Source: a bacterium
Lineage (GTDB): Bacteria > Patescibacteriota > Minisyncoccia > Phycocordibacterales > Phycocordibacteraceae
Direction: 5' to 3'
Assembly: GCA_021802705.1 (NCBI GenBank)
Contig: JAJZRL010000002.1
Span: 25,913 to 89,912 of the forward strand
Length of the DNA: 64,000 bases
Both the position numbers and the translations under genes were made by a program. Numbering within the stretch: position 1 is the stretch's first letter; each line of letters opens with the position of its first letter. This document shows positions 9,173-37,411 of this stretch, one piece after another. Below the pieces are notes generated by a model. The model had not been told where the DNA came from and did not search any database. It was given only the letters and a program-made list of their open reading frames with translations.

Positions 9173-9592
9173 TTACTTAACCTCCACCCCCATGCTTCTG
9201 GCGGTTCCTTCGATAAGCCGCGCTGCCGCTTCGGGACTGTTCGCGTTCAGGTCCGGCATCTTCTCTGCGACGATCTGAGCAACCTGCTCCTTCGTAAGCG
9301 TTCCTGCTTTTTGTCGCGGCGCCTTGCTTGAGCCCTTCTCAATACCGAGCGCTTTGAGGATAAGCCGCGCCGCCGGAGGGTTCTTCATGATGAACGTGAA
9401 CGAACGATCATCGTATACCGAGAGCTCGACCGGAATGATGGTTCCCTTCTTGTCCTTCGTGGCGTCGTTGAACTGCGTCACGAACTGGCCGATGTTCACG
9501 CCCGCAGGGCCGAGCACCGTACCGACCGGAGGAGCCGGTGTCGCAGCGCCGCCCGGAATCTGAAGCTTTATCTTTTTTACTACGGTAGCCAT
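9173..9592 (-). CDS. rplK: ribosomal protein L11
   Basis: [60 protein letters not shown]... is a canonical L11 sequence. Confidence 0.95.
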
Positions 9593-9610
9593 GATAAGAA
9601 CGACTTTACG

Positions 9611-10252
9611 CTAGAGTTTGCGAACCTGCAAGAAGTCGAGCTCGACAGGCGTCTCGCGTCCGAACATCGAGACCATGACTTTCACCTTCCCGCGCTCTTC
9701 GTCGATATCGCCCACCTTGCCCTCGAGGTCTTTGAAGGGGCCGTCGGCGATGACGACCGGATCGTCTTTCACGAGATCGATACGGTGCTTCGGCGCTTCT
9801 GCGGCCATACGCCTCATGAGCGAGGCGACCTCGGATTCTTCCATCGGGACAGGCGTATTGCCCGAACCGACGAAACCGGTAACGCGGGGGGTATTCCGCA
9901 CCACGAACCACGAATCATCATCGACGATCATGCGGACAAGGATGTAGCCAGGATAGATCTTCTCCTCCTCGACGACGCGCTTGCCGCCCTTCACGCGGAT
10001 CTTCTTCTCGGTCGGAACGACGACGTCGAATATCTTACCCTCCATGCCGAGCGACTCGATGCGCTGCTTGAGGTTGCGTTCGACGGCATTCTCGTATCCG
10101 GCGTAGGTGTGGATGGTATACCAGCGCGCCTCCTCTTTTTTCGAGGCGGATTCGTCGCGGATCTCCTTACGAAGCGCGGGCGCGATATCAGCCATCCCGA
10201 TCTCTTCCGGCAATTCTGTCTCTCCGCTGTGCGGGCGTCCTGTTTCGTCCAT
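9611..10252 (-). CDS. nusG: transcription termination/antitermination factor NusG
   Basis: WYTIHTYAGYENAVERNL NGN domain and C-terminal KOW (GPFKDLEGKVGDIDEERGKVKV). About 40 aa N-terminal extension; an alternative start is MADIAP near 10195. Confidence 0.9.
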   Translation of the reverse strand: MDETGRPHSGETELPEEIGMADIAPALRKEIRDESASKKEEARWYTIHTYAGYENAVERNLKQRIESLGMEGKIFDVVVPTEKKIRVKGGKRVVEEEKIYPGYILVRMIVDDDSWFVVRNTPRVTGFVGSGNTPVPMEESEVASLMRRMAAEAPKHRIDLVKDDPVVIADGPFKDLEGKVGDIDEERGKVKVMVSMFGRETPVELDFLQVRKL

Positions 10253-34223: not shown

Positions 34224-35201
34224 ATGCCGCAACGCGACGCCTGGATTTTCGTAGGGATATTCGTTTTCATATTCGCTGTCTGGTTCGCTCTCGGCGGCCC
34301 GACGCGTCCGCTCGATATCACGTTCCCCGCTCTCGAAAAATCAGGCGGCTCTTTCGGATTCGGACAGATGTTCGCAAGCAGCACGAACCGTTTCTCGCTC
34401 CCGCGCGCGCCTCTTGGCATCGGCAATTCGTATATATCTCTCCCCGGCTCCTCTCATGGGGCGGCTGGATTCTCAGGCAGCACGGGGATACTGCTGCCGC
34501 CCATCGTCGGCGGAACCCGTTCCGCTTCCCCGTATCAAGGGGTCGTGTCGATGAACCACTATATTTCGGGCGCCGGCTCGCAAGATCCGTCAAACGAGTA
34601 CGTCGAGATAACCGTGGCACAAAACGCGCCCGGACCCGTCGATATCACCGGATGGAGGCTTGAGAGCGATGCGACCGGAGCGGCGGCTGTCATCCCGAAG
34701 GGCACGAAAGTCCCTTTGTCCGGAATCGTTAACGCCGCGGAAGATATCGTGCTTTCTCCGGGCGAACACGCGTTTATCATTTCGGGTCAGTCTCCCATCG
34801 GAGCATCGTTCCAAGAAAATAAATGCATCGGTTATTTCAGCGATTTCCAGCAATTCCAGCCGTCCTTGCCGCAAAATTGTCCGACACCGTCGAGCGAATT
34901 GCGTTCCTTCTACGGTGCAACGTACATTCGTGACGCAGCGTGCATCGATTACGTCAATACGCTTCATCGCTGTCAGGTCATGCTTACTCCGCCGACCACC
35001 GTTTCGGGAACATGCCAGAATTTCCTCGTCACCTATCTCAATTACAACGGATGCGTCGATGCCCACAGGAACGATGCCGATTTTATGGGCGATACGTGGC
35101 ATGTTTATCTCGGTCGCACGAATTCGATGTGGCGCACCCGCTATGAAATCGTGAAGCTCGTCGATGCGCAAGGGAAACTCGTCGATGCGTTCAGCTACTA
35201 G
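34224..35201 (+). CDS. membrane-anchored lamin-tail-domain (LTD) protein
   Basis: N-terminal TM IFVGIFVFIFAVWFALGG. LTD signature NEYVEITVAQNAPGPVDITGWRLES followed by a Cys-rich C-terminal region. Confidence 0.7.
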   Translation: MPQRDAWIFVGIFVFIFAVWFALGGPTRPLDITFPALEKSGGSFGFGQMFASSTNRFSLPRAPLGIGNSYISLPGSSHGAAGFSGSTGILLPPIVGGTRSASPYQGVVSMNHYISGAGSQDPSNEYVEITVAQNAPGPVDITGWRLESDATGAAAVIPKGTKVPLSGIVNAAEDIVLSPGEHAFIISGQSPIGASFQENKCIGYFSDFQQFQPSLPQNCPTPSSELRSFYGATYIRDAACIDYVNTLHRCQVMLTPPTTVSGTCQNFLVTYLNYNGCVDAHRNDADFMGDTWHVYLGRTNSMWRTRYEIVKLVDAQGKLVDAFSY

Positions 35202-35278: not shown

Positions 35279-35354
35279 GCGCCCATAGCTCAGTCGGTAG
35301 AGCAGCTCCCTTTTAAGGAGACGGTCCCAGGTTCGAGCCCTGGTGGGCGCACCA
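35279..35354 (+). tRNA. tRNA-Lys (TTT)
   Basis: GCGCCCATAGCTCAGTCGGTAGAGCAGCTCCCTTTTAAGGAGACGGTCCCAGGTTCGAGCCCTGGTGGGCGCACCA. CCA encoded. Confidence 0.9.
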
Positions 35355-35822
35355 AAACGGGCTTATTATAAGCCCACCTGTTTGTACGATTTCTTGATGG
35401 TCTGGTTCTTTCTGGTTGCGGTAATATGCAGCTTCGAGAGCCAAAAGTGCTTCGAAAATCGGAGCTGGAACGGATTTTAATAACCCCCGTCCGGTCACTC
35501 AAAATGGTCACAGAAGAATATCGTGTAGTGCCGTTTGAGGTCGGATGAGGATTTCCTGCGCAATATCCACGCTCAGCTACCGCTGGTCTTCAAGACGAAG
35601 TAACAGGACTTTTGAATGGCGCTCGAAAGGAGTAAGATACAGGGGTGCGATATGGCCTAAACCTGGCTTCGGCTGGGCATGGCTACAAAACCAATCACGG
35701 TAGAAAGCTCCTCGTCAGGAGCAACCGTGATTGGTCATGTCGGGAAACTGGCATGGGTAGCGAAAGCTATCGCCTGGCGGGGAGCTTTTTGCATTGCTCC
35801 TTGTCGTTTCTTTCAAGACGAA

Positions 35823-36383
35823 ATGACAATTTCCTCAGAACAAAAAGATTTTATAGAAAAAGAGATTCTAAGTCGCACTTTGCAGGGCGCATTTCAACGT
35901 GTGCAGATATATGACAAAAGTGCGACGAACGAAGACCGTGAACAATTTCGTGAGATAGCAAGAAATCTTTTGCGCAAAAGTTCTGTGCCGTATCGTATAC
36001 GGAAGATATCATCGCAAGAACATATAAATAACATCGACACTCTTAAAAGTGAACTGAAGATCGTAAAATTCGGCGTGGCACAAAAGCTTCTTAATCTCTA
36101 TTTGAAATGGCTGTGGTGCGCCGGGTATCTGTATGATGCTCCGCCGCACTGTCCAATCGATTCGATTATCCTTGCAAAGATTAAGACACAAGAACCCCGC
36201 TGGCCTCTTTTGAGTAAAGAACTCTACGAAGAACGAGTTAGAAAGATTAGCGAAATTGCTCAACAAGAAGGTCTCGAAATAGCTTCATGGGAATTGCGTT
36301 TCTTTAATCACTGGAATCCTGCTTATGGAGCTGGGGATAAACCCGGTAGGAAGAAATCCGAGAAGGTTTTAAAACAAAAATAA
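35823..36383 (+). CDS. hypothetical protein, first gene of the low-GC island
   Basis: MTISSEQKDFIEKEILSRTLQGAFQRVQIYDKSATNEDREQFREIARNLL... About 187 aa with AT-rich codon usage unlike flanking genes. No family recognised. Confidence 0.45.
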   Translation: MTISSEQKDFIEKEILSRTLQGAFQRVQIYDKSATNEDREQFREIARNLLRKSSVPYRIRKISSQEHINNIDTLKSELKIVKFGVAQKLLNLYLKWLWCAGYLYDAPPHCPIDSIILAKIKTQEPRWPLLSKELYEERVRKISEIAQQEGLEIASWELRFFNHWNPAYGAGDKPGRKKSEKVLKQK

Positions 36384-36385
36384 CT

Positions 36386-36622
36386 ATGGGATGGGCAATT
36401 TTATGGGGAATGATAATTGGAGGAACGAGTAATAATAGCGGGGTCGGTTTTCTTGCCTTCATCATTATTTGGCTTTTCGTCGATGATAGGAATGCAACAA
36501 TTCATAATGCAACTGTAGTAATCAACAAACTGCAACAAAGGATAATTGAGCTTGAATCAGAACTTAGTATTGCAAGAAGTGCCAAACCAAAGAAACGGGA
36601 GAAAGAATGGAACGTCTTATGA
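36386..36622 (+). CDS. hypothetical small membrane/coiled-coil protein (island gene 2)
   Basis: 78 aa MGWAILWGMIIGGTSNNSGVGFLAFIIIWLFV...KLQQRIIELESELSIARS. Starts 3 nt after the preceding stop. Confidence 0.4.
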   Translation: MGWAILWGMIIGGTSNNSGVGFLAFIIIWLFVDDRNATIHNATVVINKLQQRIIELESELSIARSAKPKKREKEWNVL

Positions 36623-37296
36623 AGCAAATATGCCTCGGCATCATTTACGGTCTTGTTATCGCCATCGCCATAATACTCACCATCTCTTGGTATCAGAGTC
36701 AGCGCAAGGAAGTAAGCATGGCTTCTGCCGTAGTTGCTACCTCAACCGAGCCCTCTCAAATGAGCGAAGAGGATCAACAGTATGCCAAGATAAATCCGAA
36801 CTGCGCTTTGTATTACGAAAACTTAGGGGTGGGAACAGACTCTTTCTCTGTTGAGCTTTCTGACTTCACGAATCTACACCCGCTCGCTGACTTCCTCTGT
36901 GGCAAGTATTCAGATGTCATGAAAATGACTCTCTCTGATGGCAAGACCCTATACTTCATCGCTCCTATCTCCTCGTTAGGCTGTGGCAGTGGTGGCTGCA
37001 CCTACTATCCTATGCTTGAAGTCAGGCCGGGTGTAGTTCGTCATTTGCGAGGATTCGACGCCTATTCTGATGCAGGTTCGACAACTACAGCCACAGTGCA
37101 AAAAGATACTGATGGTTCGGTGTTCGGCTTCCTGTCTTTCGGCTCTCAAAGACACTCCGTGGATGTCTATTGGCACGAAAGTGCGCAATGCGGAACGACA
37201 AATACCTATGCCTTCAACAGTAAAGACGAACCTGTGTTAATCTCCGCGTCTGATAGTTGTTTACCTGGGAAGGGCATCTTATATCCGACGAAGTGA
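36619..37296 (+). CDS. hypothetical membrane-anchored Cys-rich ectodomain protein (island gene 3)
   Basis: MKQICLGIIYGLVIAIAIILTISWYQ TM then ...SSLGCGSGGCTYYP...CGTTNTYAF...SDSCLPGKG. Overlaps the upstream gene by 4 nt. Confidence 0.5.
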   Translation: MKQICLGIIYGLVIAIAIILTISWYQSQRKEVSMASAVVATSTEPSQMSEEDQQYAKINPNCALYYENLGVGTDSFSVELSDFTNLHPLADFLCGKYSDVMKMTLSDGKTLYFIAPISSLGCGSGGCTYYPMLEVRPGVVRHLRGFDAYSDAGSTTTATVQKDTDGSVFGFLSFGSQRHSVDVYWHESAQCGTTNTYAFNSKDEPVLISASDSCLPGKGILYPTK

Positions 37297-37411
37297 GGAC
37301 TCCTCGCTGCAGCATTTTGATAAACAGCAGTTGTTGCGCCATTTTATCCATATAATTTCGGTCTTGAAGTAGGTTTTTAGTTGCCTCATACTCGGGACAC
37401 CAAACAAGCGT

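Follow-up and report, generated by a model that had tools for sequence, protein, structure and literature searches.

Composition and boundaries of the island

The window, which means here the whole analysed stretch of 64,000 nucleotides, carries a low-GC island directly downstream of a core tRNA-Lys(UUU) gene (35279..35354, plus strand; detected by ARAGORN, and with 68.6 bits by the Rfam tRNA model), the integration target. In 300-nt windows the GC content fell from 0.55-0.61 to 0.39-0.48 at about 35700-37400 and then rose again to 0.56-0.60. The preliminary description had reported this drop from a background of about 60%; the drop itself was confirmed, but the background of the window is lower, about 0.555. 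The coding block at 35823-37296 has a GC content of 0.437, the minimum among all 1.5-kb windows of the 64 kb (mean 0.554, sd 0.032, z = -3.7). It consists of three plus-strand genes, ORF1 (35823..36383), ORF2 (36386..36622) and ORF3 (36619..37296), which had been placed correctly from the beginning, and their tight coupling was also read correctly: ORF2 starts 3 nt past the stop of ORF1, and ORF2 and ORF3 overlap in the sequence ATGA. The GC3 values were 0.37, 0.34 and 0.52 for ORF1, ORF2 and ORF3, respectively, versus 0.63-0.67 in the flanking core genes, and the composition of ORF3 deviates less than that of ORF1 and ORF2. The junction with the core genome on the right-hand side (37297..37411) has a GC content of 0.435 and no att-like repeat according to repeat scans and composition. 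It is followed by core genes on the minus strand, holA-like (DNA polymerase III delta-like) and polA, as had been described.

The 468 nt between the tRNA and ORF1 hold two features that had not been mentioned before, a recombinase pseudogene fragment and a LOOT RNA. The pseudogene (35313..35603, minus strand) preserves the C-terminal part, ~110 codons, of a gene for a large serine recombinase, and it runs with its 3' end into that of tRNA-Lys. Residues 432-539 of the recombinase from the related locus L010 matched it in tblastn with 32% identity over 111 aa (E 4e-5) and three in-frame stops, and a second recombinase (L030, residues 472-524) matched 35316-35483 at E 0.045. The match is modest for a search space of 64 kb, and it falls partly in the segment that overlaps the tRNA. 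The C-terminal tail region alone aligns, and the Resolvase, Recombinase and zinc-ribbon domains are deleted in the window, while the homolog in L010 keeps its recombinase domains (Resolvase 2.6e-31, Recombinase 5.7e-12). The earlier idea of an old or minimal acquisition is thus right in spirit, but the integrase is not plainly absent as had been thought, since this pseudogene survives. Another recombinase-like tblastn match at 37304-37396 was not significant (E 0.02 among 57 queries). A terminator-like hairpin directly 3' of the tRNA (35359..35375, plus strand), which came from a consensus scan only, has no weight alone because one site was found versus 2.4 expected in shuffled sequences.

No attL/attR pair or duplicated tRNA 3' end was detected in the 64-kb window with up to 3 mismatches allowed; the direct repeat of the tRNA 3' end that had been proposed as a check near 37300-37410 is found neither there nor elsewhere in the window. 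Repeats flanking the island were not significant either. With a serine recombinase, and in a truncated remnant, one would not expect an att repeat at the far boundary. A 17-nt repeat around LOOT (35589 and 35812, 15/17 matching) was rejected as an att site, because about 0.3 such repeats are expected by chance in 3 kb. The window island contains no phage structural or packaging genes.

The same site was compared in relatives, which share the synteny RuvB-T2SSE-TsaE-polA-holA on one side and tRNA-Lys-LTD-Mur ligase-RuvA on the other side, with a slot between them. This slot is empty in L135, has two unrelated small genes in L136 and has other genes, one of them LAGLIDADG, in L137; in all three the same tRNA sits between holA and the LTD gene. 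In L010 the slot holds a complete element, in which the 3' end of the serine recombinase gene overlaps tRNA-Lys and is followed by LOOT and then by a homolog of ORF1, with polA and holA adjoining; no phage structural genes were present in the 12.5 kb read. Because the relatives have nothing, other cargo or an intact element at tRNA-Lys, the island represents an accessory remnant of an integrative phage-like element. This comparison bears out the proposal that foreign DNA was gained 3' of tRNA-Lys.

The low-GC genes could instead be native and lineage-specific, without any island, with a composition that comes from their membrane and low-complexity content. It is matched with the membrane nature of ORF2 and ORF3 and with the homologs of ORF3, which among the loci examined occur in CPR contigs only. 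However, synteny of the island genes across relatives, the outcome that had been named as speaking against an island, was not seen: relatives with conserved flanks lack these genes. The same cassette also sits at other tRNAs elsewhere, the soluble ORF1 has a GC3 nearly as low as that of ORF2, and the recombinase stub is present. The native-gene explanation is already effectively refuted.

The LOOT RNA and its surroundings

A full-length LOOT RNA (Rfam RF03000) was identified by cmscan at 35654..35771 on the plus strand, with 94.2 bits versus a gathering score of 46.4 (E 4e-18, model positions 1-121 of 121). It has every helix of RF03000 and the conserved CCUAAAC, GCAUGG and GAAA elements. The Rfam entry is typed 'Gene; sRNA' with no function assigned. 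Upstream of the RNA, 35633..35653 (plus strand) holds TAAGAT and then ACAGGGGTGCGATAT, a stretch conserved between the window and L004; other LOOT loci have a TATAAT-like box and then ACAAYUNAAUA at the same place. From this we infer a putative promoter and 5' leader of LOOT.

The Rfam model ends short (~20 nt) of a conserved 3' strand, consensus UGGUGGGCUUUUUG, that is predicted to pair with the central loop. In the window this 3' extension, taken from the LOOT alignment, covers 35772..35791 on the plus strand and provides a pseudoknot strand ending in a U-tract: CGGGGAGCUUUUU (35778-35790) would pair with AGAAAGCUCCUCG (35702-35714) in the loop of the central hairpin. In an alignment of 121 LOOT loci the helix was 95.4% paired, with changes on both sides in 11 of 12 pairs. 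None of 500 shuffles reached the observed values, and slid registers were 37-46% paired. Rival local hairpins reached 82-86% with few compensatory changes. The predicted pseudoknot pairing is well supported by covariation. We set aside the idea that LOOT is a bridge-RNA-like guide of the recombinase, because its predicted structure is nearly all base-paired, with tetraloops and no large programmable internal loops.

We surveyed 123 further LOOT loci, each with as much flanking DNA on one side as on the other. Serine recombinase genes lay mostly in one placement, upstream and divergent (46, versus 2, 6 and 4 in the three other placements), and 36 of the 74 loci having at least 3 kb upstream carried an upstream recombinase; at 13 loci a tRNA abuts the recombinase stop. 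A same-strand ORF begins 3-70 nt past LOOT in 113 of 124 loci, at a median distance of 34 nt between U-tract and ATG, and the ORFs directly after LOOT sort into 72 unrelated clusters. Membrane or secreted proteins, along with nucleases, are abundant in the cargo of the surveyed elements. Some loci lie beside phage genes: LOOT adjoins TerL (E 8.5e-75) and TerS in L014, TerS in L013 and a portal/adaptor protein in L035. The RNA occurs in CPR; the source contig belongs to a CPR MAG, and nearly all 120 loci from the pattern scan are from Patescibacteria MAGs. Two candidates, L012 and L049, were discarded as chance DNA-pattern matches, the former by Rfam and the latter by eye only. This placement of LOOT, divergent from a recombinase in phages or prophages and 3-70 nt before a hypervariable gene, is absent from the Rfam annotation line and from the papers searched.

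GOLLD and ROOL RNAs are often found near tRNAs in prophages, and the CI immunity RNA of satellite phage P4 is processed from the leader of the operon under its control. LOOT resembles them as a structured RNA of temperate elements near a tRNA or integrase, and its leader position is like that of the P4 CI RNA. It differs from them in its length of only ~140 nt, it has no detectable relation with them, and no antisense target was identified. We tentatively raise the possibility, about which we keep considerable doubt, that LOOT is a phage-borne cis-acting riboregulator and not a free-standing small RNA. It would have a compact sensor domain, and the pseudoknot between loop and 3' tail would be an unusual conditional terminator that gates the hypervariable first-gene slot adjoining the serine integrase in CPR phages. 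The window cassette, with its HhH glycosylase-like enzyme and the membrane pair of ORF2 and ORF3, would then be one of many lysogen-expressed payloads for defence or surface remodelling.

The three coupled genes

ORF1 encodes a soluble all-helical protein of 186 aa with a predicted HhH-GPD (Ogg2/AGOG)-like fold, a candidate DNA glycosylase. Public gene calls start it at 35679 (234 aa), but this start reads through the LOOT RNA and the family alignments favour 35823. In the AF2 model, helices 64-78 and 83-99 flank the hairpin KFGVA. Among 175 representatives of the family, P107, P108, H109 and P111 are kept in 97-98% and D113 in 100%. Thus the HhH, the Pro-rich loop and the invariant Asp are all present and in the order of glycosylases, and the family also has an invariant Lys. 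This Lys lies four residues past the hairpin Gly, a position which we take to be like that of K249 in hOGG1. ORF1 shares only 15-17% identity and no HMM-level similarity with Ogg2/AGOG proteins (Tm1821, 3n0u; Pa-AGOG, 1xqp), and it has the additional invariant residues N91, K95, W98, H109, Y135 and E157. Its context is a mobile element, whereas Ogg2/AGOG are housekeeping proteins. Comparison with solved structures gave only coiled-coil noise in the PDB HMM search and nothing in Foldseek against PDB.

Nothing usable was obtained for the three proteins and a 61-aa antisense ORF in Pfam, PADLOC, PHROGs and NCBIfam, and PADLOC-DB v2 returned 0 families at E <= 1 for ORF1, ORF2 and ORF3. The databases therefore lend no match to the earlier suggestion of a defence, abortive-infection or toxin-immunity cassette. 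The ORF1 family includes at least 2,267 clusters and is unannotated, and the domains fused to its members had no Pfam match. Homologs in Pedobacter adjoin PDDEXK_4, MazG, an SLFN helicase and SIR2, and the homolog in L009 is near Fic, DndB, a methyltransferase and HNH. Because of the HhH-glycosylase-like fold and the homologs in defence islands, a defence role of ORF1 is reasonable, and it is plausible that the predicted glycosylase is of the defence type.

HhH glycosylases have been described as single-gene defences, Dag1-17 (Getz et al., bioRxiv 10.1101/2025.10.29.685425). As these are described, ORF1 is like them in size (~180-250 aa), in being missed by sequence annotation, in a predicted fold nearest to Ogg/AGOG-type HhH, in its invariant Lys, acidic and Trp residues, and in its occurrence on mobile DNA and in defence islands. 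ORF1 differs in that it precedes two membrane-protein genes, whereas Dags work alone. Brig1 has a UDG fold and not an HhH fold (PMC11078745), so it is a looser parallel than the Dags.

ORF2 (78 aa), as read from its sequence, is a small membrane protein whose N-terminus is hydrophobic and which also has a coiled-coil and a basic tail; homologs of 78-80 aa are found at the same position in L004 and L138. ORF3 (225 aa) has an N-terminal transmembrane anchor, then a disordered linker, then a beta-rich domain in which six cysteines are invariant; its predicted fold was uninformative. Both are CPR-specific membrane proteins. The ORF spacing of the window recurs in the homologous cassettes of L004 and L138, where the order is tRNA, LOOT, a variable first gene, ORF2 and ORF3. 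In L139 a recombinase is followed by LOOT, other cargo and a homolog of ORF3. The first gene of L138 is NOV_C, and a second family of first genes is found in L004, L006, L030 and L088, with sub-threshold similarity to Ogg and MutY. A common fold of the window-type and L004-type first genes gained no support from hhalign (probability 3%). The swappable first gene with ORF2 and ORF3 retained, and the link with CPR phages, had also gone unmentioned in the preliminary description.

From this arrangement one could suppose that ORF1, ORF2 and ORF3 form a new three-component anti-phage system, in which a DNA-sensing or base-excising enzyme works with a membrane effector pair that aborts infection, and LOOT is the dedicated regulator. 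The tight coupling is kept in three genomes, ORF2 and ORF3 persist when other predicted DNA enzymes replace the first gene, and type III and type I restriction-modification systems are found nearby. But the system has no PADLOC match, the fold of ORF3 gives no help, and ORF1-family genes are mostly without ORF2 and ORF3, with other neighbours in Pedobacter and L009; among LOOT loci the window alone has both. The trio is not obligate, since L006 has no ORF2 and L139 has different upstream genes. We regard such a system as unlikely.

Origin and significance of the cassette

We consider it probable that the island goes back to a temperate phage, or a phage-like integrative element, of an uncultivated CPR bacterium (Patescibacteria, Minisyncoccota/Paceibacterota-type), and that it is the integrase-proximal end of this element, which later decayed. 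The label 'phage' rests on the relatives, because no structural gene is left in the window island. The element would have entered at the 3' end of tRNA-Lys(UUU) by its large serine recombinase, and later deletions would have removed all that lay past the first cargo operon, together with about four fifths of the recombinase gene. The remainder would be the recombinase stub, LOOT with its promoter and the translationally coupled ORF1-ORF2-ORF3 operon. Transcription would start ~15-20 nt upstream of LOOT, and the RNA would form a compact fold in which the central-hairpin loop pairs with the 3' strand ending in the U-tract, a pairing that covariation supports well. From its position and the U-tract, the pseudoknot may either close off a stable small RNA at its 3' end or be a conditional terminator. 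In this case the genes, which start 32 nt further on, would be expressed only from read-through transcripts. The most likely task of ORF1 would be to remove a base, probably a modified one, from the DNA of incoming phages in the manner of the Dags. ORF2 and ORF3 may form a membrane-anchored extracytoplasmic module, typical of prophage cargo for lysogenic conversion or superinfection exclusion. A defence role of the cassette is plausible.

As a counter-point to decay, integrase-less modules of tRNA, LOOT, first gene, ORF2 and ORF3 are present at three different tRNAs (window, L004 and L138), and they could mean a non-autonomous cassette. The block would then be a complete satellite or 'mini-element' that serine recombinases from co-resident CPR phages insert in trans beside tRNA genes, and not a decayed prophage. 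The layout is nearly identical at Lys-UUU in the window, at Asn in L004 (LOOT 129 nt off) and at Lys-CUU in L138 (134 nt); LOOT is similarly near a tRNA in L129 (Lys-CUU, 101 nt) and L097 (Ala, 130 nt), and swaps of the first gene leave ORF2 and ORF3 in place. However, the window has a stub with stops between the tRNA and LOOT, which is the prediction of decay of an L010-type element, and no recombinase remnant, att repeat or flanking repeat marking the ends of such a cassette was found. The ORF3 homolog of L139 also sits inside a recombinase-bearing element. A mobile cassette of this kind seems to us quite improbable, and the decayed prophage end is kept as the preferred explanation.

Prophage cargo at the integrase or att end is well known, as in lambda rex/sieB, the hot spots of P2 and P4, and prophage-mediated defence in mycobacteriophages. 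The island is like such moron or defence cassettes in its place beside an integrase and attachment site, its foreign composition and its own putative promoter, and the content of LOOT cargo likewise varies highly between related elements. It is unlike the known cassettes in its CPR host, in the large serine recombinase with tRNA targets, and in that one conserved structured RNA always heads the cassette. Beside the well-studied serine integrases, the use of many different tRNA targets by such enzymes is unusual.

Finding a prophage remnant at a tRNA gene is nothing special in itself. What is gained is a concrete genomic role for LOOT, an orphan RNA of CPR, which in CPR phages and prophages stands at the head of a hypervariable cargo slot adjoining the serine integrase. 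Its extra helix suggests control of termination, and because of this genomic role and the well-supported helix LOOT is directly testable. The ORF1 family, which has a glycosylase-like active-site signature and occurs on mobile DNA and in defence islands, fits with the newly recognised anti-phage glycosylases. LOOT could be used as a beacon for prophage ends and lysogen-expressed cargo in nearly unannotated genomes. If the riboregulator reading is true, it would mark a large unexplored reservoir of CPR prophage cargo, including new defence genes.

Composition and neighbourhood of the island

The GC drop after tRNA-Lys(UUU) (35279-35354, plus strand; ARAGORN and Rfam) that the preliminary description had pointed out was borne out by windowed analysis. 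In 300-nt windows, GC content fell from 0.55-0.61 to 0.39-0.48 at about 35700 to 37400 and recovered after that. The coding block 35823-37296 had a GC content of 0.437, the minimum among all 1.5-kb windows of the 64 kb (mean 0.554, sd 0.032; z -3.7). The three coupled ORFs were also present on the plus strand where they had been placed: ORF1 (35823-36383, 186 aa), ORF2 (36386-36622) after a gap of 2 nt, and ORF3 (36619-37296, 225 aa), which overlaps ORF2 by 4 nt. GC3 was 0.37, 0.34 and 0.52, respectively, and 0.63-0.67 in the adjoining Mur ligase, LTD, holA-like, polA and TsaE genes. The start of ORF1 at the 35823 ATG coincides with the start of 34 homologs; the 234-aa "long" ORF1 of public gene calls reads straight through the LOOT RNA described below. 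Upstream of the tRNA, 34224-35201 is a core gene for a Lamin-tail-domain (LTD) protein (Pfam, E 1.4e-8), with synteny kept in relatives.

For the holA-like protein there are about 1,500 homologs; beyond the source species, identity reaches at most 64%. Three contigs carrying the closest homologs (L135-L137) keep the order RuvB-T2SSE-TsaE-polA-holA ... tRNA-Lys(UUU)-LTD protein-Mur ligase-RuvA, and the content between holA and the tRNA/LTD pair is different at each locus compared. The site is void in L135 (98 nt, tRNA, then an LTD-like gene), L136 has two small unrelated genes 3' of the tRNA, and in L137 a LAGLIDADG gene lies immediately 3' of it, together with an Exo_endo_phos gene and a gene of 193 aa. 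A search of these three contigs detected no LOOT. In a further contig, L010, the site carries a recombinase and two genes, then LOOT and an ORF1 homolog, along with three genes for membrane proteins. Related genomes thus hold nothing or other content at the same tRNA-Lys, which upholds the earlier claim of a foreign island. The tRNA-Lys site is a hot spot, the content found in the window is accessory, and the island is real and foreign. In L137, the LAGLIDADG_3 homing-endonuclease-like gene (9235-10065) begins 1 nt past tRNA-Lys, the same position as the island. Relative to the holA/LTD flanks, the tRNA-Lys(UUU) of L135 (7783-7856), L137 (9161-9234) and L010 (2218-2294) is oriented opposite to that of the window and of L136 (8700-8775), which implies inversion at the hot spot.

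A copy of the tRNA 3' end, proposed as a mark of the far boundary, was sought at the far side and none was found, which is expected for serine recombinases and also for a truncated remnant. The earlier statement that no integrase is present needs correction. L010 encodes a 539-aa large serine recombinase with Resolvase, Recombinase and Zn-ribbon domains; its final 108 residues are matched by minus-strand 35603-35313 (E 4e-5; 32% identity across 111 aa), with three stop codons in frame. The C-terminus of a second recombinase (L030) aligns to 35483-35316. In L010 the intact recombinase gene overlaps the tRNA-Lys(UUU) 3' end exactly as this stub does in the window. Therefore, the integrase is not absent but reduced to a stub. 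At the right-hand junction (37304-37396, minus strand), another recombinase-like C-terminus was matched by tblastn (42% over 31 aa), which is not significant at E 0.02 among 57 queries. A 17-nt direct repeat with 15/17 matches (35589-35605, TTCAAGACGAAGTAACA; 35812-35828, TTCAAGACGAAATGACA) flanks the LOOT unit, one copy lying at the cut end of the stub and the other across the ORF1 start; chance alone would give about 0.3 such pairs in 3 kb.

LOOT RNA and the elements carrying it

The 468-nt interval between tRNA-Lys and ORF1 is occupied: it holds a full-length LOOT RNA (structured RNA family RF03000; 35654-35771, plus strand) that reaches 94.2 bits (gathering score, 46.4), the sole non-tRNA Rfam match in the window. 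A DNA pattern built from three LOOT copies was used to scan IMG/VR and one-genome-per-species GTDB contigs, giving two LOOT-bearing contigs (L013 and L014) and at least 120 loci, respectively. All but one (L049) of the 120 matches listed look like true LOOT; L049 was left out by eye, with no model used. The loci among these matches are nearly all in Patescibacteria MAGs, with two copies in several genomes.

Gene placement was analyzed around 123 LOOT loci outside the window, with about equal DNA on each side. Of the large serine recombinase genes, 46 were upstream of LOOT and divergent from it, versus 2, 6 and 4 in the other three placements; such a divergent recombinase is present in 36 of the 74 loci having at least 3 kb upstream, and ten loci have a start-to-start gap of 120-180 nt. 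At 13 loci the recombinase gene stops right against a tRNA gene (Lys, Ile, Gln, Glu, Asn, Ala, Ser or Trp). Recombinase genes ending at or overlapping a tRNA 3' end were seen in L010, L022, L027, L058, L066, L086, L094, L096, L100, L104, L110, L122 and L127, with at least eight specificities in all. To our knowledge, tRNA genes are not the usual targets of well-studied serine integrases, and this combination may be a peculiarity of phages of the candidate phyla radiation (CPR, Patescibacteria). Phage hallmarks were also identified: TerL (E 8.5e-75), TerS and a reverse transcriptase in L014, TerS in L013, and a portal/adaptor protein after LOOT in L035. Thus, from recombinase placement and phage hallmarks, LOOT is a feature of the integrase end in temperate CPR phages and in integrative elements related to them.

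We consider it likely that the island is the decayed, integrase-proximal end of such a phage or integrative element, which has retained LOOT and one cargo operon. The main rival reading, that the island is a non-autonomous cassette, seems to us rather improbable.

A same-strand ORF begins 3-70 nt past the Rfam 3' end in 113 of 124 LOOT loci. Clustering splits these first genes into 72 unrelated groups. Most of the genes encode secreted or membrane-anchored proteins; others encode SNase nuclease, NucS-like, HSDR_N and DUF4365/Mrr-like PD-(D/E)XK proteins, and one reads on sequence inspection as a putative DNA methyltransferase. In L014 (1685-3731), the first gene encodes a 214-aa membrane protein of the largest first-gene cluster (20 loci), after which come the reverse transcriptase (PHROG 1423, E 9e-111) and a helical protein of 116 aa, Avd-like in look. 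This arrangement suggests a diversity-generating retroelement acting on the cargo of the LOOT slot.

Proposed leader role and pseudoknot of LOOT

Upstream of LOOT there is a TATAAT-like box and then a conserved ACAAYUNAAUA, which are probably the promoter and first transcribed nucleotides. In most loci the latter motif lies some 10-35 nt before LOOT (L013 4960-5000, for example, and 35633-35653 in the window); its version in the window and L004 is diverged (GATACARGGGTGCGATAT).

Past the Rfam boundary, 20 nt that the model leaves uncovered are conserved (consensus ACCCAUGUGGUGGGCUUUUUG). This 3' extension is complementary to the A-rich 5' portion of the central-hairpin loop, with a median duplex z-score of -2.6 against shuffles. 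The helix was examined in a MAFFT alignment of 121 loci with no structure fitted: it was 95.4% paired and both sides had changed at 11 of 12 pairs (one pair, for example, was AU 48, GC 42, CG 19 and UG 11). None of 500 shuffles reached the observed values, and slid registers paired 37-46%. The helix is on par with the accepted helices P3 (central hairpin lower stem, 88%) and P4 (next hairpin, 98%). Rival local hairpins were poorer, pairing at 82-86% with compensatory change nearly nil. Because the P3 lower stem is also conserved, P3 and the new helix together form a pseudoknot. In the window, 35702-35714 (AGAAAGCUCCUCG) pairs with 35778-35790 (CGGGGAGCUUUUU) at 13/13 positions.

The helix terminates in a near-invariant U-tract, a median of 34 nt before the next start codon (32 nt in the window). 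A separate promoter would hardly fit into so short a spacing, and we therefore infer from the position of LOOT that it serves the cargo operon as its 5' leader. The pseudoknot and U-tract would then act as a terminator-like element. In a constitutive version, this terminator would yield a stable RNA of ~140 nt with some read-through; in an alternative version, termination would be conditional.

Cargo genes

The ORF1 family comprises 2,267 clusters (50% identity, E ≤ 1e-3), 645 of them at E ≤ 1e-30, and matches no Pfam model. Members are typically ~175 aa and are also found outside CPR. The Pedobacter member overlaps a PDDEXK_4 gene, and the island that holds the two also contains MazG, SLFN-like helicase, BRCT and SIR2. 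In L009 (5630-7268), a 216-aa member is embedded in a urease operon, flanked by a short ureF and by ureG with stops and starts overlapping, and Fic, DndB, methyltransferase and HNH genes are just downstream. The AF2 model of ORF1 is all-helical and confident (pLDDT 92), and the sequence fits the HhH-GPD signature of helix, hairpin (KFGVA), helix, Pro-rich loop (PPHCP) and Asp. K88, N91, K95, W98, D113, Y135 and E157 are invariant among 175 representatives. Getz et al. (bioRxiv 10.1101/2025.10.29.685425) showed protection against phages having 7-deazaguanine DNA for many small HhH glycosylases, sequence orphans carried on mobile DNA (Dag1-17) and equipped with Lys/Asp/Trp active sites. By analogy, ORF1 is a candidate that plausibly works like the Dag glycosylases, and a defence function is plausible. 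Five longer members (P0183, P0185, P0190, P0228 and P0261; 321-368 aa) have an extra C-terminal domain of about 150 aa, for which a Pfam search gave no match; P0183 and P0190 share the motif FPL.NNV..LG...E..GLG.AI in it.

ORF2 (78 aa) begins with a hydrophobic N-terminal stretch, followed by a coiled-coil and a basic tail; its homologs were observed in sister cassettes only. In ORF3, a transmembrane helix at the N-terminus is followed by a disordered linker and then a beta-rich domain carrying six invariant cysteines, so a location outside the cytoplasm is probable. Fold comparison of ORF3 gave no convincing match; its 16 homologs are on CPR contigs in each case having a source name or locus.

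The cassette varies elsewhere. L004 has tRNA-Asn, LOOT, a different 194-aa first gene, homologs of ORF2 and ORF3, and a type III restriction-modification system; L138 has tRNA-Lys(CUU), LOOT, a NOV_C protein and both homologs. L139 has a serine recombinase, two genes, LOOT, two other genes, an ORF3 homolog and a type I restriction-modification system. L006 has tRNA-Arg, an L004-type first gene and an ORF3 homolog, without ORF2 and with LOOT undetected. The L004-type first gene has sub-threshold matches to Ogg and MutY and no detectable relation to ORF1. These variants make ORF2 and ORF3 a semi-stable module, with predicted DNA enzymes swapped in and out of the slot next to LOOT.

A prophage remnant with a moron cassette is a kind of object already known. 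Less ordinary are the LOOT leader, which is conserved and whose pseudoknot is newly supported, the use of tRNA targets by serine integrases, and the large orphan glycosylase-like family to which ORF1 belongs.
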